Assembly (NCBI GenBank): GCA_963721805.1
Contig: CAVRJY010000001.1
Location: forward strand, 1,248,001-1,312,000
Direction of reading: 5' to 3'
DNA length: 64,000 nt
From: Nitrospirota bacterium
GTDB lineage: Bacteria > Nitrospirota > Thermodesulfovibrionia > Thermodesulfovibrionales > JdFR-86
A model generated the notes under the pieces. The model was not told the DNA's origin. It saw only the letters and a list, made by a program, of their open reading frames with translations, and did not search any database. A program made the position numbers and the translations under genes. Below are positions 1 to 12,145 of the stretch, one piece after another; positions within the stretch are counted from its first letter, which is position 1, and each line of letters starts with the position of its first letter.

Positions 1-185
1 GGCACTATGCCGCTGTCAACAAACATGTGACGGGCACGGGTGTGGTAACCAATCTCATCGGTATTGGCACTGAATGGCAATCCGATACGATGCTGCTTGA
101 TGTCCAGTTCAAAGGCGACACGGTCGAGGAGTACCAGATGGAGACGTCAAGCAGGACGCAGATGCATCAATCCCTGGCGCGATAA
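1..185 (+). CDS. 3' end of a hypothetical protein, truncated by the window edge (...HYAAVNKHVTGTGVVTNLIGIGTEWQSDTMLLDVQFKGDTVEEYQMETSSRTQMHQSLAR*)
   Basis: Open frame from position 3 to TAA at 183-185, followed by a terminator-like hairpin. Confidence 0.55.
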   Translation, partial: HYAAVNKHVTGTGVVTNLIGIGTEWQSDTMLLDVQFKGDTVEEYQMETSSRTQMHQSLAR

Positions 186-210
186 ATCGTTAATAAGGCG
201 TGAAGATAAG

Positions 211-240
211 ATCGGGGGCCTTCGGGCCTCCGATTTCTTT
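211..240 (+). terminator. Rho-independent terminator
   Basis: ATCGGGGGCC-TTCG-GGCCTCCGAT hairpin followed by TTCTTT. Confidence 0.75.
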
Positions 241-526
241 GTAATGAATTAATGGCCAAGCACATGAGGGCATGCAACAGCCAGCTTGCCGTTCTGTGCC
301 GCATCAGGCAAGCCCGCCGAGCGAACCGAAGTATTTATCGGGGAATGGATTACCCGCAATCAGATGTTTGAGGACATGGAAGCCCGAGTTGATTGTGGGT
401 CGATAAATACTAGGGAAAGCGAGCGCTTTTTGGCGCAGCCGGAGCGGCGAGTTTTTATCCAACTTTTGGAAATGTTGGTCGGGTGTGGGAGCGCGCAGCT
501 CCCACAATAAAATAAGCCAGATTAGT

Positions 527-766
527 CTATTCCCGTGGAAGCCATCCTTTTTCATTTCGTTTTGGTATTGTGATCCCATTAGCTCTTAGATGAGCAGTGA
601 CTTTGCCTTCATAATGAGGGGCCCAGCCGTCCCAATTGCTGTCATAGCAGCTTTTACATACTGTAAGGTTATAGGTTGAAATATGTTTTCCGTTATATGC
701 ATGAGGACCGAACTGGAATTCACGACCGCATATCTGACAACGTACCGTATTAGGTGAGTTATCCAT
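527..766 (-). CDS. Small AT-rich hypothetical protein with two CxxC pairs (possible zinc ribbon)
   Basis: 79 aa with CQIC...CKSC; AGGAG-like RBS upstream; lower GC than groEL. Confidence 0.6.
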   Translation of the reverse strand: MDNSPNTVRCQICGREFQFGPHAYNGKHISTYNLTVCKSCYDSNWDGWAPHYEGKVTAHLRANGITIPKRNEKGWLPRE

Positions 767-837
767 TGGATGTACTCCTATGATGAATAGTTACAGTTAA
801 AGTTGGTTAACATACACTATATAACCTATTTTATTTG

Positions 838-869
838 AAAACCGGGGGGCGCAAGTCGCGCCCCCCGGT
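838..869 (-). terminator. groEL terminator
   Basis: ACCGGGGGGCGC/GCGCCCCCCGGT inverted repeat with T-run on the minus strand just past the groEL stop. Confidence 0.8.
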
Positions 870-888
870 GAGTAATTTAGCCAAAATT

Positions 889-2526
889 TTAGTACATCCC
901 GCCCATGCCGCCGCCACCCATCGGGGGCATCTGCATCTTGCCGCCTTCTTCCGGAATGTCGGAGATCATGACCGAGGTCGTGAGCATCAGCGAACTGACG
1001 GACGCCGCGTTCTGAAGTGCGCAGCGCGTGACCTTCGTCGGGTCGATGATCCCGGCCTTTATCATGTCCACGTACTCGTCCGCCTGGGCGTCGAAGCCGT
1101 AGTTCACGGTCTTGTTGGCCAGGACCTTCTCGAGCACAACGGAGCCCTCGAGCCCGGCGTTGTTGACGATCTGCCTGATCGGCTCGGTGATGGCCTCCTT
1201 GACGATGTTGACGCCAAGCTGCTCGTCGTGGTTGAGGCTCTTGACGCCGTCGAGCGACTTCATGCACCTAAGCAGCGCAACGCCGCCTCCGGGCACGATG
1301 CCTTCCTCGACCGCCGCGCGGGTTGCGTGCAGGGCGTCCTCGACGCGGGCCTTCTTCTCTTTCATCTCGGTCTCGGTCGCGGCGCCTACGTTGATGACCG
1401 CAACGCCTCCGACGAGCTTCGCGAGCCTCTCCTGGAGCTTCTCGCGGTCATAGTCCGAGGTGGTCTCGTCGATCTGGGTCTTGATCTGCTTGACGCGGCC
1501 CTGGATCTTGGCCGGCTCTCCCGCGCCCTCGACGATGGTGGTGTTCTCCTTGTCGATGTTGATCTTCTTGGCGCGGCCGAGGTCCTTGATCGTGATGCTC
1601 TCAAGCTTGATGCCGATGTCCTCGGTGATCATCTGGCCGCCGGTGAGGATCGCGATGTCCTCGAGCATGGCCTTCCTGCGGTCGCCGAAGCCGGGGGCCT
1701 TTACGGCCGCGACCTGCAGCGTGCCGCGCAGCTTATTGACCACCAAGGTGGCGAGGGCCTCGCCCTCGACGTCTTCGGATATGATCAGCAGCGGGCGGCC
1801 CATCTTAGCGATCTGTTCAAGGATCGGGAGGAGGTCCTTCATCGCGGAGATCTTCTTTTCGTTGATGAGGATGAAGGCGTCTTCGAGCACGCACTCCATG
1901 CGGTCGGGGTCCGTTACGAAGTAGGGTGAGAGGTATCCGCGGTCGAACTGCATGCCCTCGACTATGTCGAGCGAGGTGGCCATGCTCTTGGCCTCCTCGA
2001 CGGTGATGACGCCGTCCTTGCCGACCTTGTCCATCGCATCGGCGATCAGCTCGCCGATCGAGTGGTCGTTGTTGGCCGAGATCGTGCCTACCTGTGCGAT
2101 CTCCTTCTTGTCAGCGACGGACTTGCTCATCTTCTTGAGCTCCTCGACTATCACGACCACGGCCTTCTCGATGCCGCGCTTGAGGTCCATCGGGTTCGCG
2201 CCGGCGACTACGTTCTTCATGCCGGCCTTGTAGATTGCGTACGCGATGACAGTGGCGGTCGTGGTGCCGTCACCGGCCACGTCGGAGGTCTTCGAGGCGA
2301 CCTCGCGCACGAGCTGCGCGCCCATGTTCTCCCACGGGTCCTTGAGCTCGATCTCCTTGGCCACGGTCACGCCGTCCTTGGTTATCGTCGGCGCGCCGAA
2401 CTTCTTCTCTATGATAGCGTTGCGGCCCTTGGGGCCGAGTGTGGCCTTTACCGCGTCGCTGAGCTGCTTTACGCCCTGAAACATGGCCGAACGGGCGGCC
2501 TCGTCAAACAGAAGCTGTTTTGCCAT
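889..2526 (-). CDS. groL: Chaperonin GroEL
   Basis: [29 protein letters not shown] motifs and GGM tail. Confidence 0.99.
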
Positions 2527-2544
2527 TTCTGTGGTATCTCCTTG

Positions 2545-2811
2545 TTAATTCTGGATTATGCCGAGGAGGTCTTCCTCTTTTACGATGAGGTGGTCTTTGT
2601 CGTCGATCTTGATCTTCGAGCCCGAGTACCTGTCAAACAGGACGATATCGCCGACCTTGACCTCTTTGACGTCCGAGCCGACGGCCTCGACCTTGCCCTG
2701 CTGCGGCTTTTCCTTGTTTGCGGTGTCCGGGACGTACAGTCCCCCTGCGGTCTTCTCCGGCTCTTCCGCGAAGCTGACCCACACCCTGTCTTTAAGCGGC
2801 TTGATTTTCAT
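2545..2811 (-). CDS. groS: Co-chaperonin GroES
   Basis: IKPLKDRV...[22 protein letters not shown]; directly upstream of groL. Confidence 0.98.
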
Positions 2812-2847
2812 CAGTTGAGTCTCCTTTCGTTATGGTTCTGGGAGTTG

Positions 2848-2874
2848 TTAGCACTCCATCCAAGTGAGTGCTAA
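2848..2874. promoter_or_regulatory. CIRCE element (HrcA operator)
   Basis: Exact TTAGCACTC-N9-GAGTGCTAA upstream of groS. Confidence 0.97.
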
Positions 2875-2903
2875 GTGTACATCGTTTGGTTCCCCAGAGG
2901 CAA
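2874..2903 (-). promoter_or_regulatory. Sigma70-type promoter of groSL
   Basis: TTGCCT-18 nt-TACACT on the minus strand abutting the CIRCE. Confidence 0.6.
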
Positions 2904-3899
2904 GCGGCGTGAAAATCCGATGGATAGCCGGAATTGTAGAATAGTCATAAATAACTCCTTAAAGCTCTCATTTATGGAGATTTGCGCCGAATTGCGCTGG
3001 ACATAATCCAGCTTACGTGAAAGCGCGATAGCTTTCATGAAAGCGCTCCAAATCGCTTGATACGTCGTTGGGCATCGAAGACTCGCCCTCTATGTACGCC
3101 CAAGTACACCATCGGGGTGCCACGGGCACCTCTTTCCAAGGAGAGGGGCCAACTGGCCCCCTTGTCTGAAGCCGATTTGGGCGCGCTTTCGGGGGGCACT
3201 GCAACGGAAGCCCCCCGCGCCCCGAAGGTCAAAGGCATGATAAGAAAAAGCATGTCCGGATGCTCGCGCTTAGGTATAGTTACGCATTCCGCGCGCGCAC
3301 GCGCGCGTTTTTGCCGATTTTGTTCGGATGTTGGGCGTAAAAAAGGGGCTAACCATGCGGATAATATCATTTTCCTGATCGGGTCTTGTTCGGATGTTCG
3401 GATGTTTTTGGCCGAAAATAGGTCGATGTTCGAATCCCAATTGTGCTTGGTACTCCCGACCTCCGGGTTCATTGATTTTGTCTCTATATACATCATGCCA
3501 TATTGAAGCACAACGAAATGAAAAAAGCGATAACCTACGGTTTATATATAAACCAAAGGTTATAGGAAAAATTGATCCCCGTGCGTTTTCTACTAACTTC
3601 CGACTAACTATAGTTAGTGATAAGTCGATTGCATTCGTTAAGGTTTGTGGGAGTTTTTGATTGTTTCTGTATGTCTCTACATGATAATATATATACGTGT
3701 AAATTCTTTTATATTGGGGAGCGATCATGAACCATACAATAATGCTGCCTAGCAACTTTGGGACGAAAAAGTATGGTTTCTTTGATTTCAATGACTTACT
3801 CGCAATATTCGATTGGACAATTAAAAATGCGAATGTTGTGATAAGTTTCGAGGAAAATAATAGAGGGAACTTTCAGGCTTTAACGAAAACCATGCCAGT

Positions 3900-3923
3900 A
3901 TGCCCCGTGGCTTGCCACGGGGA
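3900..3923 (+). repeat. Left-end subterminal hairpin of the IS
   Basis: ATGCCCCGTGGCTTGCCACGGGGA; identical copy at 4450..4473. Confidence 0.95.
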
Positions 3924-4006
3924 TGAATGGCATCCCTGCCGGGGGGATGTAAGGGGGGCTGGAAGTCCCCCTTTCCCGCCGAGGCAATTGCGGGCTATCA
4001 TGAGGC

Positions 4007-4438
4007 ATGGGGTTACGCAGGACGAGTCACGCTGTATATGACACCGGGTACCATCTGGTATGGTGTCCTAAGTATCGCAAGAGACTGTTCGCGCAAAGTT
4101 ACATGCGCGAGCGGTGCGCGGAACTTTTCAGGGAGATAGCTGAAGAGTATGAATATGAGATAGTGGAGATGGAAGTGGCGGAGGACCATGTGCATATATT
4201 TCTATCGTTCCCGCCACGGTACTCGATAGGGGTGGTGGTCAGAACCCTGAAAAGTATCAGCGCCCGTGAGCTGTTCAAGCAATACCCATCGCTGAGGCAA
4301 AGACTATGGAAGGGTGAGCTGTGGGAGGATGGGTACTTTGCGCGGACAGTCGGGGACAGCTTGACCTCGGAAATGATCCGCAAATACATACGCGGCCACA
4401 GAGCAGAGAAGCAATTGCCTGCGCAGCTGGACTTATAG
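4007..4438 (+). CDS. tnpA: IS200/IS605 family Y1 (HUH) transposase
   Basis: YHLVWCPKYRK, DHVHI (HUH), LWEDGYFARTVG, IRKYIRGH catalytic Tyr helix. Confidence 0.97.
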   Translation: MGLRRTSHAVYDTGYHLVWCPKYRKRLFAQSYMRERCAELFREIAEEYEYEIVEMEVAEDHVHIFLSFPPRYSIGVVVRTLKSISARELFKQYPSLRQRLWKGELWEDGYFARTVGDSLTSEMIRKYIRGHRAEKQLPAQLDL

Positions 4439-4449
4439 CTGCGCCACGG

Positions 4450-4473
4450 ATGCCCCGTGGCTTGCCACGGGGA
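4450..4473 (+). repeat. Right-end subterminal hairpin of the IS
   Basis: 24-bp exact copy of 3900..3923, followed by GCTTCAC end. Confidence 0.95.
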
Positions 4474-5801
4474 GCTTCACTTTATTAATACTTTACATAT
4501 GGTATTTAAGGATTAATAATTGCAAAATTACAATTAAATTTAGGAAGGGAAGTTCACTAGTTAGACGTCTTGGGGCAACGGGGTCCTGGGAGAAAATGAG
4601 GGCAGAGTCGTGGCAAGATGTATTGGAAAATACTATTGAGAATTTTCCTGACAGTATGTATAAACCTTTGATTGCAGTTAGGAATAAACTTGATTTCGAA
4701 AAGACGTTAGAAAAATTGCAATCTTATACTTCAGGGTTTAATATTGAATATGAAAAAACTCTTAGGCACATTATAGCAGAGTTGCTATACAATACTATGG
4801 AACATGGTAAGGCTATAAATCTAAGCCTAAACATACCATCCTTAATCCAATTTACATGGTATCAGAGAGTTAATGAACTTCATTTTATAATTGCCGACCT
4901 AGGTGTTGGCATTAAGAGACATCTTGAACAAGCATATCTTCCGTTCCATGACGATAAAAGTGCTATTTTGGAATCTTTAAGGCCGAATGTATCTGGCACC
5001 TTTGGCATATTAGACCCATATAAAAGTAAAGACAATGCTGGTTATGGATTATTTCTTTCGAGTAATATAATAAGAAGATTAAATGCCGACATGAATATTG
5101 TTTCCGGTAATGGTCATGTGCATATTTCACCGAAGGATACTACAGCTCATCAATTGGATTATTATTGGCCTGGTACATTTGTTCTGGTTAATATAAGTTT
5201 AAGCAATAACGAAGCGATTAGTTTGCAAAAGCTATTATCAGAGTTTAGACAGTCAGCTGAACTCGAATTAAGTGATGCTGAGCTAACAGAGTCTGATAAG
5301 TATCACTACTTGAGTGTTTTCAATTTTTTCGGCAAATATGCTGAAGATAAAGAGTCAGCTATAAAATACCGCGATAATTATATTACTCCTTCACTTAATC
5401 AGGGAAAATCATTACATATTGACTTCAGTAATGTTCTTGCTGCTCCACATAGTTTTTTGAGTGCATTACTGGCGACTCCTATTCATAATCTTGGAATGTC
5501 TGCATACAAAAAAATTAAAATAACGAATGCTCCCCCAGATATCCGTGAAACAATTGATTACATTCTAAACGAAAATACTTAATGGCAACATGGGCCGGGG
5601 GCTTCTCAACTCCCCGAAAGCACGAGAACACCAATAATGCCGTTGACCGCTCGCACGCTTAGGTAATGGAAACTTAAGGTGCGATAAATTGCGTCAGACT
5701 AGGAACGGCGAGCAGACCGCCCGGAGGTGTATCGTGATATACATTGAGGACGAGGCTGCAAGCCGTGACAACGTATCACGCAACTTTAGCGCGCCTTGGA
5801 G

Positions 5802-7223
5802 CTATCCCCCGAAACCCGTTACAGCCGCCTTCGCCAGGTCGAATAACCTGCTTGGAAGTATGCCGATCAAGAGCACTCCGGCGGTCGCTAGGCCGATGGC
5901 TACCGAAAGCCCTGATGAGGGGGCGAGTTCCACGGTCTCCTTGGGTTCGTTCATGTACATGAGCATCACTATGCGGAGGTAGAAGAAGGCCGAGATCGCG
6001 CTGAAGACGACCGCCACCAGAACCAACGGGGTATACCCGGCGTTTACGGCGGCCATGAAGATATAGAACTTGCCCATGAACCCGGCAGTTGGCGGTATTC
6101 CGGTTAATGAAAACATGAATATCAGCATCAGCGCTGCCGAGACCGGGTGGGTCTTGGACAGGCCCTGGAAGTCGTAGATGCTCTCGCCCTTGACCCCATC
6201 GCGTCCAAGCAGGATCACCAGCGCGAACGCCCCTATGTTCATAAACGCATAGGCCATCATGTAAAACAGCACCGCGCTCATACCCTCGGCGGTCGCGGCC
6301 ACGACGCCCACGAGGGCGTACCCGGCGTGCGCTATAGAGGAGTACGCGAGCATGCGCTTGATGTTCGTCTGCGAGAGCGCGATCACGTTTCCCACCGCCA
6401 TCGTGGCTATGCACAGCGGGACGAGTATCGCGGCCCACTCGACCTTCATCGAGGCAAACGCGATCATCAGCACCCGGCCCATGACCGCGAAACCGGCGGC
6501 CTTCGGCCCCACGGACATGAAAGCGGTGATCGAGGTGGGCGCGCCTTCGTATACGTCAGGGGCCCACATATGAAACGGCACCGCTGCCACCTTGAAGCAG
6601 AACGCCGAGACGAGCATCCCGAGCCCCAGCAGCAGCATCGGGCTTTCGGCCCCGCGATGGAAGGCGAGGTACGTGGCTATGCCCCTGATGTCAGTCGTAC
6701 CGGTATAGCCGTAGCTTAGCGATATCCCGTAGAGAAGTATCGCGGAGGCGAACGCGCCAAGGAGGAAGTATTTGAGCGCGGCCTCATTCGAACGCTTCTG
6801 CCAGCGGATGAACCCCGCGAGCACGTATGTCGAGAGGGCCATGAGTTCGAGCCCCAGATAGAGCACTATCAGGTCCCCTGCCGAGGCCATGACCATCATC
6901 CCGAGCGTCGAAAACAGCAGGAGGCTGTAGTATTCGCCGAAGTTGGACTTCACGATCTCTATAAACCGCACCGATATCATCGTGCTCAGTATCAGGCTTA
7001 CGAGGAACGTGACCTTGAAGAATATCGCGTAGCCGTCGTTTACGACCATCCCGTTAAACGCGGTGCCCATCGAGCCCTGGAGCGAGAACATCACCGCCGC
7101 TGCCGCGATCACCCCGGCTGCCGCGATTATGTCCTTGCGGTGGACGAAGAGCTCCATCATCAGCAGCGCGCAGGCCGCGCAGGCCATGATAATCTCGGGG
7201 ACGACCGCCGTCAGGTCTGGCAT
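5802..7223 (-). CDS. nuoN: NADH-quinone oxidoreductase subunit N (stand-alone)
   Basis: Polytopic membrane protein; EAALKYFLLG, FKVAAVPFHMWAPDVYEGAP, KRMLAYSSIAHAGY. Confidence 0.95.
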   Translation of the reverse strand: MPDLTAVVPEIIMACAACALLMMELFVHRKDIIAAAGVIAAAAVMFSLQGSMGTAFNGMVVNDGYAIFFKVTFLVSLILSTMISVRFIEIVKSNFGEYYSLLLFSTLGMMVMASAGDLIVLYLGLELMALSTYVLAGFIRWQKRSNEAALKYFLLGAFASAILLYGISLSYGYTGTTDIRGIATYLAFHRGAESPMLLLGLGMLVSAFCFKVAAVPFHMWAPDVYEGAPTSITAFMSVGPKAAGFAVMGRVLMIAFASMKVEWAAILVPLCIATMAVGNVIALSQTNIKRMLAYSSIAHAGYALVGVVAATAEGMSAVLFYMMAYAFMNIGAFALVILLGRDGVKGESIYDFQGLSKTHPVSAALMLIFMFSLTGIPPTAGFMGKFYIFMAAVNAGYTPLVLVAVVFSAISAFFYLRIVMLMYMNEPKETVELAPSSGLSVAIGLATAGVLLIGILPSRLFDLAKAAVTGFGG

Positions 7224-7264
7224 GGTTATAATGCTCCTTTATAGCTATATATGAAAGCTTTGTA

Positions 7265-7293
7265 AGTATAACTTGACAGGGGGGCAAAAGCAA
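7265..7293 (-). promoter_or_regulatory. Sigma70-type promoter upstream of nuoN
   Basis: TTGCTT-17 nt-TATACT on the minus strand; AAGGAG RBS downstream. Confidence 0.6.
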
Positions 7294-7316
7294 GAGAAAA
7301 GCGGCCAGCCGCTCTC

Positions 7317-8051
7317 TTATAGCGAGTTGATCCTGTGGGCGAGGCAGCCCGCGCCGAAACCGTTGTCAATATTGACGACCGCTATGCCGGGCACGCATGA
7401 GTTCAGCATCGCAAACAGCGCGGTCAGCCCGCCCAAGCTCGTGCCATATCCGACCGAGGTCGGCACCGCTACAATGGGGCAGGCCGCGATCCCGCCGACC
7501 ACCGAGGGCAGGGCGCCCTCCATCCCGGCGACTACCACGATCACCCGCGCGCTCGCTAGCTCGCCGCGCTGGTCAAGCAGCCTGTGGATGCCTGCCACGC
7601 CCACGTCGTACAGCGTGGCCGCCTCGCTTCCCAGAAATTGCGCCGTAAGCGCGGCCTCTTCGGCCACCGGGATGTCCGAGGTCCCTGCGGTGAGCACGAG
7701 CACCTTGCCCTTGCGCTCCTTCGCTCCACCGGCAACGATCAGGCCGCTTGAGGGGTGGAACTTCGCGCCGCGGATGCGGAGCTTCTTTCGGATGGCGTCC
7801 GTGGCGCGCGTGATCAGGAGGCTTCCGCTTTTATCGTATATCGCGCGTCCGATCTTTACGACGTCCTCGGGCTTCTTGCCTGCTGCGAAGACGACCTCCG
7901 GTATGCCCTGCCTGATATGGCGGTGGTGGTCGATCCGCGCGCACTCGATGTCTTCATATGGCAGGTCGCGGAGCTTTCCTATCGCGGCCTCGACCGGGAG
8001 CCTGCCGCTTTGCACGTCGGCCAGCAGCGCGGCCAGCCGCCTGCTATCCAT
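7317..8051 (-). CDS. larB: Nickel-pincer cofactor biosynthesis protein LarB (AIR carboxylase-like)
   Basis: AGTSDIPVAEEA, DVGVAGIHRL, AGMEGALPS, PTSVGYG, VNIDNGFGA. Confidence 0.92.
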   Translation of the reverse strand: MDSRRLAALLADVQSGRLPVEAAIGKLRDLPYEDIECARIDHHRHIRQGIPEVVFAAGKKPEDVVKIGRAIYDKSGSLLITRATDAIRKKLRIRGAKFHPSSGLIVAGGAKERKGKVLVLTAGTSDIPVAEEAALTAQFLGSEAATLYDVGVAGIHRLLDQRGELASARVIVVVAGMEGALPSVVGGIAACPIVAVPTSVGYGTSLGGLTALFAMLNSCVPGIAVVNIDNGFGAGCLAHRINSL

Positions 8052-9039
8052 AGAACTCGTTCTTGAGCGAGCGGGCCATGAGCGACTCTACCGCCTCGCG
8101 CACGTCGAGCCCGCCGTAGATGATCCCGTAGACCTGCTCGATGATCGGCATCTCGACGTTAAGCGAGGCCGCGATCTCGTGCGCGGCCTTCGCGGTCGGC
8201 ACGCCCTCCGCAACGCTCCGGGTCGAGGCCTTGATCTCTTCGATCTTCATCCCCTGACCGAGCTTCATGCCGGTGGTGAAATTGCGCGAGGTCTGAGAGC
8301 TGCAAGTAAGCACCAGGTCCCCGATACCGCTCAGGCCCGAGAACGTCCGTTCCTTGGCGCCCATCACCAACCCGAGCCGCGTCATCTCGGCCAGGCCCCG
8401 CGTGATCAGCGCCGCGCGCGCGTCCTGCCCGAGCTTGAGCCCTTCGGTGATACCGGCAGCTATCGCTATCACGTTCTTGATCGCGCCGCCCAGCTCCGCG
8501 CCGATCAGGTCGCCGTGCGTGTAGACGCGGAAGTACTTCGTGTTGAATATCTCCTGAAGGATGAGCCCCGCGTCATACGTCTCGGTCGCGAGCGATACCG
8601 CGGTCGGCAGCCTGTCGATTACCTCGCTTGCGAAGCTCGGGCCGGAAAGCACGGCCGGAGAGCAGGGCGTGACCTCGCGGACGATCTGAGAGACGGTCAT
8701 ATGCGTGCCGATCTCGATGCCCTTCGATGCGGTGACGATGACCGTCTCGGTCGAGAGGTATGGGGCTGCCGCTTTCAGCACAGAGCGCGTATACTGCGCC
8801 GGGACTACGTTTACGATATAGCGCGCCTTTGAGACGACAGAGTCGAGGTCGGTCGACGCCTTGAGCGTGCGCGGCAGCTCGTGGCCGGGAAGGAATACGC
8901 TGTTCGTGCCCTTCGTCTGGATCTCGTCTACGACCTCTTTTTCGTTCGCCCAGAGCTTGACGTCATAGCCCTTCTCGGCGAGCATGGCCGCGAGCGTAGT
9001 GCCCCATGCGCCGCCCCCGAGCACCGCGATATAGTTCAT
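8044..9039 (-). CDS. gpsA: NAD(P)H-dependent glycerol-3-phosphate dehydrogenase
   Basis: [38 protein letters not shown]. Confidence 0.97.
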
Positions 9040-10727
9040 CCCTTTGGCCCTCCTTCGGACTTCTGCTGCAGCTTCGCCCAGGTGTCCTTGAGCGTGATCG
9101 TGCGGTTAAAGACCGGATGTCCTGCCTTGGATTCCACGCTGTCCGGGCAGAAGTACCCGAGCCGCATGAACTGGTAGACCGTGCCCGGTTTCGCATCACC
9201 AAGCGAGGGCTCGAGCTTGCAGCCCCTTAGAGTCTGGATAGAGTTTGGGTTTACGAAGCTCAGGAAATCCGCGTCCTTGTCATCGTCCGGGTTCTCCTTC
9301 GTGAACAGCCCCTCGAACAGCCTCACCTCGGCGTCTACCGCGTGCGCTACAGAGGCCCAGTGCAGCGTGCCCTTGACCTTGCGCTCCGCGTTCGCCATCC
9401 CGCTTCGGCTTTCGGGATCATACGTGCAGCGAAGCTCCTTAATCGTGCCGTCGGAGTTCTTGATAACCTCTTCGCACTTGATGATGTAGGCGTGCTTGAG
9501 CCTCACCTCCCGGCCGGGCGCCAAGCGGAAGAACTTCTTCGACGGCTCTTCCATGAAGTCGTCCTGCTCGATATAAACCTCTCGCGAAAACTCTATCGTC
9601 CTCGTCCCGGCCGAGGGGTCCTCGGGGTTGTTTTCGGCCACAAGCTCCTCGATCTGTCCCTCCGGATAGTTCGTTATCACGAGCTTGATCGGCCTTAGCA
9701 CCGCCATCACGCGCGGTGCGCTCTTGTTGAGGTCTTCCCTCAGGTGGTGCTCCAGTAGCGCGATGTCTATGGTGCTGTTGGCCTTGGCCACGCCTATGCG
9801 GTCGCAAAACGCGCGTATGGCCGAAGCAGTATACCCGCGCCTCCGCACGCCTGAGAGCGTCGGCATCCGGGGATCGTCCCATCCGCTGACGACGCCTTCC
9901 TTAACCAGCCTCGTGAGCTTGCGCTTGCTCAGCACGGTGTAGCTAAGATTCAGGCGCGCGAACTCGACCTGCTGCGGGTGGTATATCCCTAGCGCGTCGA
10001 TGAACCAGTCATACAGCGGGCGGTGGTCCTCGAACTCTATCGTGCAGATCGAATGCGTGATGCCCTCGATGGAATCGCAGAGCCCGTGGGCCCAGTCGTA
10101 CATGGGATAGATGCACCATGCGTCGCCGGTGCGGTGGTGCGTGGCGCGCATGATGCGGTACATCACCGGGTCGCGCAGGTTGATGTTGCCCGAGGCCATG
10201 TCGATCTTGGCCCGCAATGTTCGCGAGCCGTCCGGGAACTCCCCGGCACGCATGCGGGTGAAGAGGTCGAGGTTCTCATCGACCGTGCGGTTGCGGTATG
10301 GGCTGTCCTTGCCTGGCTCGGTGAGCGTGCCGCGATAAAGGCGCGTCTCCTCGGCCGTCAGGTCATCGACATACGCGAGGCCCTTATTAACAAGGATGAG
10401 CGCGTGCTGGTATATCTGCTCGAAGTAGTCCGAGGCGTAGTACATCCCGTTCCAATTGAACCCCATCCAGCGCACGTCGGCCTGGATCGAGTCGACGAAC
10501 TCCTGCTCTTCCTTGGACGGGTTGGTGTCGTCGAACCTAAGGTTGCACTTGCCGCCGTACTGCCCGGCGAGGCCGAAGTTCAGACAGATCGACTTGGCAT
10601 GTCCGAGGTGCAGGTAGCCGTTGGGCTCCGGCGGAAAGCGCGTGTGCACCCGGCGGCCGAACTTGCCGGTCTCGTTGTCGCGGTCGATTAGCTCGGTGAT
10701 GAAGTGCGAGGGCCTCTCGGTCTCCAT
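9036..10727 (-). CDS. glnS: Glutamine--tRNA ligase
   Basis: [38 protein letters not shown]. Confidence 0.97.
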
Positions 10728-10729
10728 GC

Positions 10730-12145
10730 CTATTCCCCGGCCATTTCGATGGCGCGGCGGATGCGCCTGAGCGTCTTTTCGCGCCCGACTATCTCAAGGA
10801 CGACGAATATGCCGGGGCTCATCGTCCCGCCGGTTACGGCGACGCGGATCGGCTGGGCTACGGCACCCAATTTCACGCACATCGTCTCTACGAGGCTGTG
10901 CACCGCGTGCTCGAGCGCCGGGGCAGTAAACTCGCCAAGCGGCTCTATCACAGAGAGGACCTCTTTCAGATACCCCGCGGAAGTTGGCGTCAGGTGCTTT
11001 TCCTTTGCCTTGGGGTCTATCTCGACCTCGTCGGAGATGTAGTATTTAAGCGCCGTCGCAAGCTCAAGCATCGTCTTTGCGCGCTCTGTAAGCGTAGAGA
11101 CCGCACGCTCCGCCCATGCCGTATTGATAACGGTGTCTTCAGCGATAGTGCCCTGCGCGACCAGAAAAGGCCTGACGAGTTCATAGAGCCGGGAAGGGGG
11201 CAGGGTTTTCATGTACTCCGCGTTAAGCCACATGAGCTTCTCGGGGTTGAATACGGACGCGGACTTCCCTATGTGCTCGAGCGAGAAGAACTCGACGAGT
11301 TCCTCCGGGCTGAATACCTCCTGGTCTCCGTGCGACCATCCGAGCCTTACGAGGTAATTCACGAGAGCCTCGGGAATAAAACCCCCATCGCGGTACGCGA
11401 GCACCGATGTAGCGCCGTGGCGCTTCGAGAGGCGCGTCTTGTCCGATCCGAGTATCATCGGCAGGTGCGCGAAACGCGGCACCTCGTACCCGAGCGCGCG
11501 GTATATGTGCACCTGCTTGGGCGTGTTGTTGAGGTGGTCGTCGCCGCGTATGACGTCCGTGATCCGCATCTCGTAGTCGTCGACCACGACGCAGAAATTA
11601 TATGTCGGGGTCCCGTCGCTGCGCACGATGATGAGGTCGTCTAGCTGCGAGTTTTCGAATATCACAGGGCCGCGTATGAGGTCCGACACCACGGTGTCGC
11701 CCTCCATCGGCATCTTAAACCGGATGGAGTAGGGCTTGCCCTCGATGGGCTCCCTGATCGAGCGGCAGCGCCTGTCGTAGCTCGGCGTCTGGCCGCGCTT
11801 GATCGCCTCCTCGCGCCGGACCTCGAGCTCCTCGGGGGTGCAGTAGCAGCGGTACGCCTTGCCGTGCTTGAGGAACTCCTCGGCGTGGTGGCGGTAGATC
11901 TCGAAGCGGTCGGTCTGGCGGTAGGGGCCCTCGTCCCAGTCGAGCCCTAGCCAGCGCATGCCCTCTATGATCGAGGCTATGTACTCGTCGGTCGAGCGGT
12001 CGCGGTCGGTGTCCTCGATGCGCAGCACGAATTTCCCGCCCGAGTGGCGGGCGTAAAGCCAGTTAAAAAGCGCTGTGCGCGCCCCTCCGATGTGCAGGTG
12101 CCCGGTCGGGCTGGGCGCAAAGCGCACCCGTATGTCTCTATTCAA
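10730..12145 (-). CDS. gltX: Glutamate--tRNA ligase
   Basis: [29 protein letters not shown]. Confidence 0.98.

Follow-up and report, generated by a model that had tools for sequence, protein, structure and literature searches.

An IS200-type insertion sequence within a probably foreign gene for a STAS-like/GHKL/STAS-like protein in a Nitrospirota bacterium

Introduction

Transposition of the IS608 type starts with precise excision of the element, with the donor joint sealed and the target sequence retained, according to the passages of PMC5027513 that treat this chemistry. Here, we analyze a 64,000-nucleotide window of a Nitrospirota genome (the whole stretch of DNA under study: GenBank assembly GCA_963721805.1, contig CAVRJY010000001.1, positions 1,248,001 to 1,312,000 of the forward strand), in which a 596-bp insertion sequence (IS) of the IS200 type, at positions 3885 to 4480, has in all likelihood recently knocked out a single, horizontally acquired gene encoding a protein of about 419 amino acids (aa). 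The element is like IS200 of Salmonella, IS608, and ISDra2 in that a Y1 HUH transposase is its sole gene product, it has subterminal hairpins, and it inserts without a duplication. As in models of IS200/IS605 elements, it lies 3' of a fixed tetra- or pentanucleotide, the bases 5' of its hairpins covary with the cleavage site, and its orientation may follow the direction of replication, judged by the sign of the GC skew (3 of 6 sites being nearly skewless). Its target, (T/C)TAAC and then T in all six copies, differs from the TTAC of IS608, its 596 bp are fewer than the about 700 bp of IS200, and it has no tnpB. The position of an IS within a coding frame from which scar-free exit is possible also recalls IS492 in the eps locus of Pseudoalteromonas atlantica; in IS492-type switches both states are observed in the population, whereas here the occupied state alone was seen.

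The protein encoded by the interrupted gene invites comparison with two kinds of kinase-STAS switches. In the first, CapK (helix-turn-helix [HTH], STAS, and GHKL domains) is paired with CapS (STAS and winged HTH [wHTH]), and VapK (STAS and GHKL) occurs with VapS (STAS plus a tail) and the PIN toxin VapC; single-stranded DNA (ssDNA) activates the kinase and a STAS serine is phosphorylated, which is experimental for CapK and predicted for VapK, and in SpoIIAA-type proteins, CapS, and VapS the serine that becomes phosphorylated lies at the start of the second STAS helix (all as described in sections of Chambers et al., EMBO J 2026, PMC13373217). The family examined here is like VapK in that a STAS-like domain is followed by an anti-sigma-type GHKL kinase domain, and like VapS and CapS in that there is a second STAS-like domain with a conserved serine at the start of its second helix. 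As around Vap and Cap, defense, toxin-antitoxin, and mobile genes lie nearby at 15 of 35 family loci (restriction, toxin-antitoxin, integrase, or conjugation genes by Pfam name among the nearest ORFs, at most four, with no background control). Unlike Vap and Cap, the kinase and its putative STAS substrate are fused in a single chain; unlike Cap, no HTH or wHTH family is found among the Pfam matches of 20 members; and unlike Vap, there is no conserved PIN/VapC or other effector neighbor, with none in the window and a PIN gene near only 3 of 35 loci.

The second comparison is with SpoIIAB-SpoIIAA, RsbW-RsbV, and Rv1364c, to which the GHKL domain is structurally nearest (Z-scores of 10.1 to 12.8) and in whose likeness the flanking domains appear STAS-like. 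Rv1364c of Mycobacterium tuberculosis (PDB 3ke6) also holds partner-switch domains in one chain, RsbU and RsbW being seen in the matches; full-length Rv1364c carries a STAS domain as well. Unlike in the SpoIIAB and RsbW systems, neither a sigma factor nor a PP2C phosphatase adjoins the gene, which is a solitary mobile gene and not part of a sigma operon. By architecture, the family would resemble a partner-switch kinase-substrate pair in a single chain, a likeness that does not imply Cap or Vap membership. The literature mentioning DUF4325 yielded nothing on a family of about 420 aa with STAS-like, GHKL, and DUF4325 domains, and the ESM Atlas returned only unnamed DUF4325/HATPase clusters.

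Results

Between positions 3727 and 5582, the list of open reading frames (ORFs) for the window gives 3727..4041 and 4596..5582, with 4007..4438 in between. We read the same segment as one gene in two pieces, separated by an IS:

3727..3884, plus strand: 5' piece of the gene, codons 1 to 52 and the AC of codon 53; first half of the N-terminal STAS-like domain
3880..3884, plus strand: retained target TTAAC at the left flank of the element, the sole sense-strand TTAAC in 3727..5582
3885..4480, plus strand: IS200-type insertion sequence, 596 bp, tnpA only; six 100% identical genomic copies
4481..5582, plus strand: 3' piece of the gene, last base of codon 53, 366 codons, and stop
4596..5582, plus strand: 328-aa ORF reported by gene callers, beginning at an internal Met conserved across the family

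The sequence reads GGCTTTAAC and then GAAAACCATG across the left junction (3884/3885), and GGAGCTTCAC and then TTTATTAATAC across the right junction (4480/4481). The 52 codons of 3727..3882 end in NFQAL, the 366 stop-free codons of 4482..5582 start with LLILYIWYL, and between them codon 53 is split by the element into AC (3883-3884) and T (4481), which together give ACT (Thr). Removal of the element in silico leaves a 427-codon stop-to-stop stretch over the joint (60 codons before it and 367 after it), which fits a 1260-nt gene of 419 aa that begins at the ATG at 3727, with GGGGAG 7 nt 5' of it. The 3' piece encodes the remainder of the N-terminal STAS-like domain, a GHKL ATPase domain, and a C-terminal DUF4325 STAS-like domain. 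ORF 3727..4041 runs into the IS, which contributes its second half. The insertion occurred 3' of the gene's only sense-strand TTAAC with no base duplicated or deleted, so that 3727..3884 and 4481..5582 still sum to an intact frame. This arrangement had been proposed from the letters and ORF translations alone (here, the original prediction), and a rereading of the junctions and of both ORFs matches that proposal.

The relatives of the protein are continuous across the joint. A search with the 366-aa piece recovered 789 relatives at an E value of ≤0.001, of which the best 120 (119 non-self) were listed; 113 of these 119 are 400 to 470 aa long and six are 314 to 391 aa, and all six of the latter are on contigs of 1.5 to 5.8 kb and are probably cut forms. 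Most of the listed matches have 50 to 59% identity over the whole 366-aa piece (E values from 1.7e-138 downwards), and most of the listed relatives match the query along its full length (100%), with the 38 residues that precede Met4596 among the aligned positions. At the other side of the joint, the N termini of the ~420-aa relatives align to the 52-aa piece (NFQAL against NYQAL), and in an alignment of the 113 full-length relatives the 5' piece ends at column 111 and the 3' piece starts at column 113; in column 112, which lies between them, the relatives have S (81), A (25), or T (7), and the split codon of the window gene supplies T. Homologs do not start near Met4596, a point that the original prediction had singled out for checking, but extend upstream and align to the 5' piece, which confirms the interruption; the continuous relatives of ~420 aa and the single free alignment column likewise bear out its claim that one 419-aa gene underlies the two ORFs.

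Conservation is uneven along the protein. Identity to the relatives is 31 to 48% for the 5' piece and 52 to 61% for the rest. Of 93 columns without variation in an alignment of 20 relatives, 87 are retained by the window gene, and four of the six changes fall within the N-terminal piece. Among the 113 relatives, it keeps 91 of the 95 columns conserved in ≥97% of sequences, and its four departures compare with a leave-one-out family median of 1 and a maximum of 11. Judged by these alignments, the gene is somewhat divergent at its N terminus and has no visible decay.

The element itself is compact and complete. Its features are as follows:

4007..4438, plus strand: tnpA, 143 aa, Y1 HUH transposase, intact
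3903..3922, plus strand: left subterminal hairpin, CCCCGTGGC-TT-GCCACGGGG, starting 18 nt inside the left end
4453..4472, plus strand: right subterminal hairpin, the same 20 nt, ending 8 nt before the right end (AGCTTCAC)

The GC content of the element is ~52 to 56%, versus ~34% for the gene. In all six genomic copies, identity starts at 3885 (GAAAACC) and stops at 4480 (GCTTCAC); the left flank and the right end both end in AC, so the cut can be placed up to 2 nt leftward with the empty-site sequence unaffected. The tnpA product matches Pfam Y1_Tnp (6.7e-42) and the NCBIfam equivalog transpos_IS200 (154.9 bits, cut-off 55), and it carries the H-V-H motif H61-V62-H63 and Tyr127. The hairpins, with a 9-bp stem, sit in a 24-nt repeat in direct orientation (3900..3923 and 4450..4473), and the combination of subterminal hairpins at both ends with no terminal inverted repeats is a feature of the IS200 group. 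On the basis of its sequence, 3885..4480 is a member of the IS200 group of the IS200/IS605 family, and the two transposase matches agree with the earlier call of an IS200-type element with an intact TnpA. The element is a further member of a known IS family, and the insertion event is in itself ordinary.

The flanks of the six genomic copies define the target. Five of the six copies have TTAAC as their left flank and the remaining one has CTAAC; each of the six is followed by T at its right end, and none has a flanking duplication. T also follows the right end in two contigs from other metagenomes with different flanks (runs X2 and X7). We considered whether this T is part of the element and ruled this out, since the gene frame requires it; the preferred target is probably (T/C)TAAC followed by T, with insertion between the two. 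The original prediction of an insertion with no target duplication stands, both in the six sets of flanks, which have no direct repeat, and in the gene frame, in which no base is gained or lost. The cleavage pentanucleotides TTAAC (3880..3884) and TTCAC (4476..4480) differ at one base, A versus C, and the 5 nt before the two hairpins, GTATG (3896..3900) and GGATG (4446..4450), also differ at one, T versus G, so that A at the cleavage site goes with T before the hairpin and C goes with G. Guide-sequence recognition, in the form described for IS608 in parts of PMC5027513, predicts such covariation; the exact register of the guide/cleavage pairing is one that we infer.

Orientation matches the sign of the local GC skew in all six copies, with an absolute skew of <0.005 at three of the six sites and the origin not mapped, and it fits insertion into the lagging-strand template. 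The density of TTAAC is 2.38 per kb in DNA of <40% GC versus 0.54 per kb in DNA of ≥60% GC (a difference of about four times), which helps explain hits on low-GC cargo of this kind. Two of the other copies (C4:146421 and C1:42214) lie inside copies of a ~130-bp repeat, both at the same position in it, after CTAAC or TTAAC. A further copy, at 1501..2096 of locus L003 (C1:1450533-1454128), has struck a second accessory gene: it removes the last ~43 codons of an opposite-strand ORF, at least 500 aa long, with a weak match to AAA_14 and surroundings of 30 to 34% GC. Outside this genome, the same IS is flanked by other sequences in peat-metagenome contigs (runs X2 and X4), at ~96 to 97% identity (17 to 21 differences in ~480 to 600 nt), and is therefore in circulation among related organisms elsewhere.

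The interrupted gene appears to be foreign to its surroundings. With ~34% GC, it lies between groES/groEL and nuoN, where the GC content is ~60%, and it was found in 0 of 40 related genomes of the same family and order, which leaves no syntenic empty site for comparison. Its relatives come from 56 loci in many phyla, the hosts including Nitrospira, Nitrosospira, many Gammaproteobacteria, Verrucomicrobiota, Acidobacteriota, Cyanobacteria, an actinobacterium, Leptospiraceae, and Cloacimonetes. Low GC content, the lack of a match in the 40 related genomes, and scattered phyla together suggest that the gene was horizontally acquired. Across 50 loci, the only conserved neighbors are those of one Acidobacteriota synteny block (10 to 11 loci), and some relatives are wedged between housekeeping genes, as between two histidine genes of the His_biosynth family (L055) or between alaS and purD (L075). 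Two repeat-bearing boundaries enclose the gene in the window, with no other convincing ORF between them:

3032..3620, no strand assigned: left boundary of the islet, with a structured repeat at ~3032..3246, a module at ~3246..3411, and a ~130-bp repeat at ~3491..3620
5632..5798, no strand assigned: right boundary, a structured-repeat copy adjoining the end of nuoN, with 42 other genomic matches

Each repeat of the left boundary has dozens of genomic copies. The structured repeats are inverted, the plus strand of the right one aligning with the minus strand of the left one, and the ~130-bp repeat at 3491..3620 contains an internal palindrome (3530..3563) and has at least 30 genomic copies at 79 to 91% identity. 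An Rfam search of 2700..6000 gave no credible family, and no tRNA was found in 1..12000.

Other members of the gene family are also broken. In Nostoc, an insert of ~197 nt with a change of frame interrupts the gene (L088, 5980..7451) around residue 265; a Rhodocyclales copy is missing residues 1 to 141 and shifts frame near residue 375; and three family loci are reduced to fragments (the loci concerned, besides L088, are L089, L095, L098, and L099).

The domain content of the protein was examined by profile searches and structural models. Pfam places DUF4325 (STAS-like) at the C terminus and HATPase_c in the middle of the window piece and of 20 of 20 relatives; HATPase_c_2 matches 20 of 20 members and STAS_2 matches 15 of 20, and in P0011, the one member with its table shown, the STAS_2 match lies on the C-terminal domain. 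In an AlphaFold2 model of a relative (20-row alignment; mean pLDDT of 85.8), the middle domain is nearest to SpoIIAB (Z of 12.8), followed by RsbW (10.4), UsfX (10.2), and the RsbW domain of Rv1364c (10.1), with histidine-kinase ATP-binding domains at Z of ≤9.5; Foldseek also ranks SpoIIAB first for this model. The N-terminal 128 residues modeled alone (30-row alignment; pLDDT of 90.8) have as their top 28 structural matches mostly STAS domains (Z of 4.8 to 7.2), including anti-sigma antagonists, RsbV, RsbS, MlaB, and SLC26 STAS domains, mostly with 79 to 86 residues aligned at 2.2 to 3.2 Å (63 to 69 residues in five rows). The consistency of this list and the fitting order of secondary structure elements support the term STAS-like for the modeled N-terminal domain. 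The predicted order is thus a STAS-like domain, a SpoIIAB/RsbW-like GHKL ATPase, a long helix, and a DUF4325 STAS-like domain, in agreement with the STAS-HATPase-STAS order first proposed for this gene, and the IS insertion point falls in the second helix of the N-terminal STAS-like domain.

Across 20 members, E148, N152, D191, G193, G195, and N237-A-G-x-G241 are invariant, and the 3' piece in the window has the GHKL ATP-binding motifs ELLYNTMEHG, ADLGVGIK, and DNAGYGL, those of the N, G1, and G2 boxes. At the start of the second helix (375-396) of the C-terminal domain stands the serine of an invariant PHSF motif (S376 of P0011), and by its position we infer that it is the equivalent of the phospho-serine of SpoIIAA, CapS, and VapS. 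The counterpart of the PHSF stretch in the N-terminal domain reads A-N-Y-Q, with no serine, in what is a weak alignment; hhalign found a weak 24-column match between the N- and C-terminal domains (E value of 0.021, probability of 2.3%), which served for a comparison of the strand-loop-helix motif and not as an argument for homology. A complex prediction for the GHKL domain and the C-terminal STAS domain gave a score of 0.00 (mark, 0.32).

Discussion

The observations at this locus are best explained by the recent inactivation of a horizontally acquired, single gene of ~419 codons by an IS200-type element. By the chemistry of IS608 and ISDra2, the element would have moved as ssDNA in a "peel and paste" manner, and TnpA may be able to excise it and reseal the gene exactly. 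In the intact protein, the kinase-type domain would phosphorylate the PHSF serine of its own or a neighboring molecule's C-terminal STAS domain, and the N-terminal STAS domain may act as a sensor, the role it would share with those of VapK and CapK. The gene would now be off or would at best yield a sensor-less 328-aa fragment, and the simplest view is that the insertion represents a neutral or favorable loss of accessory cargo and not a regulated switch. The six IS copies are identical, which indicates that the insertion is recent; this identity, together with the retention of 91 of the 95 conserved columns, upholds the original prediction of a recent event, and it also indicates that the N-terminal divergence of the gene predates the insertion.

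Several observations weigh against parts of this explanation. The N-terminal piece is less similar to the relatives than the rest, and four invariant positions in it are changed (F to T, D to S, C to N, and Y to F in the 20-sequence alignment); the gene may already have been drifting before the insertion. Neither the empty-site junction (3884 joined to 4481) nor a circle junction is present in assembled contigs, and excision at this site is to that extent conjectural. For the protein, the Z-scores of the N-terminal domain are all <8, which is middling by the tool's scale, and Foldseek found no match to this model at an E value of ≤0.001, the best being a STAS domain at 0.044. A 20-member profile compared with PDB sequences matched neither CapS nor VapS, giving two unrelated matches at an E value of ~0.2; PADLOC matched neither of the two pieces searched (the window piece and the N-terminal piece) nor a full-length relative; and neither the protein nor the sequence next to it shows an effector or output domain.

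Other readings of the locus can be set against these data. The view that 3727..4041 and 4596..5582 are unrelated, with a genuine native start at Met4596 and the upstream ORF separate or spurious, starts from the fact that gene callers report the 328-aa ORF (P0004) and that 6 of the 119 listed relatives are of comparably short length, but it is refuted by the length of the other 113, by their coverage of the 38 residues upstream of Met4596 in most cases, and by the alignment of 3727..3882 to the relatives' N termini with one free column before the 3' piece; the second half of ORF 3727..4041 is, moreover, IS sequence, and we give this view practically no credence. A separate question is whether cells still produce the 328-aa protein of 4596..5582 and whether it now acts in a different way, for example as a kinase freed from its sensor domain; this product would lack the N-terminal STAS domain but keep the GHKL domain, the C-terminal STAS domain, and part of the linker. 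Met4596 is family-conserved and preceded by GGGAG, the 328-aa piece retains all of the ATP-binding motifs and the PHSF serine, and the sole sigma-70-like match in 3400..5850 (TTTACA-17-AATAAT, 4492..4520) lies 12 nt past the IS. This promoter is a consensus match only, however, from a scan with 1 match versus a shuffled mean of 6.1; a start at Met4596 would fall within a helix of the modeled N-terminal domain; and the six short relatives come from contigs that probably cut them. We regard continued function of the fragment as improbable.

We are similarly doubtful that the insertion is a reversible switch, in which TnpA would excise the element precisely in part of the population and restore the 419-aa gene as an on/off device. 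The empty site would be an intact frame, the transposase is intact, the six identical copies suggest recent activity, and the orientation of the 3885..4480 copy relative to the GC skew fits. Excision of IS200/IS605 elements is promoted by ssDNA at replication forks and after DNA damage. Exact resealing of the donor by TnpA, on which the original prediction relied, is established for IS608 (PMC5027513), and since precise excision is a normal step of IS608-type transposition, reversibility is chemically plausible for any IS200/IS605 insertion. The same formal reversibility would hold, however, for every such insertion in any gene, and this site is no different from the other five, two of which are in noncoding repeats. 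Run X1 (0.47 of sampled words), the one run in which the locus is well represented, has contigs with the occupied right junction (4452..4581) at 0 differences and no joint of 3884 to 4481; the search covered assembled contigs, which drop rare variants, and is silent on rare excision. Among the listed runs there was no RNA data set with the locus. Exact-match scans of metagenome contigs for the natural left flank and the natural right flank gave 0 matches each. Two contig joints (3573 to 3880 and 3593 to 3881) stem from other IS copies in the 130-bp repeat. A near-identical intact allele is also missing among the listed relatives, the best non-self relative being 57 to 59% identical.

Knockout of a single foreign gene by a recent insertion, the reading we prefer, has consequences for annotation. 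Automatic annotation gives a 328-aa DUF4325 protein and a 104-aa orphan in place of one 419-aa gene and an IS. Loci of this kind should be annotated across the IS200-type element, whose insertion leaves no telltale duplication. With its 596 bp, its (T/C)TAAC target, and a clean guide/cleavage covariation, the element defines an autonomous IS200 of compact size. Only the finding of both states within a single population would make the switch idea important. A bolder proposal is that the STAS-GHKL-STAS family condenses the ssDNA-activated kinase-substrate switches VapK/VapS and CapK/CapS into one self-contained chain, which is carried as solitary cargo in defense islands and, in this genome, in repeat-bracketed slots, and that ssDNA-promoted excision of the IS could tie the restoration of a DNA damage sensor to DNA damage itself; we consider this a long shot. 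Judged by its architecture, the gene family is a variant of the recently described kinase-STAS switches: the interrupted gene belongs to a large, uncharacterized, and horizontally mobile family that appears to fuse the kinase and the STAS substrate of the Cap and Vap switches in one protein. If it is true that this family is a stress or immune sensor, the locus would be a natural knockout that can be compared with its intact relatives.

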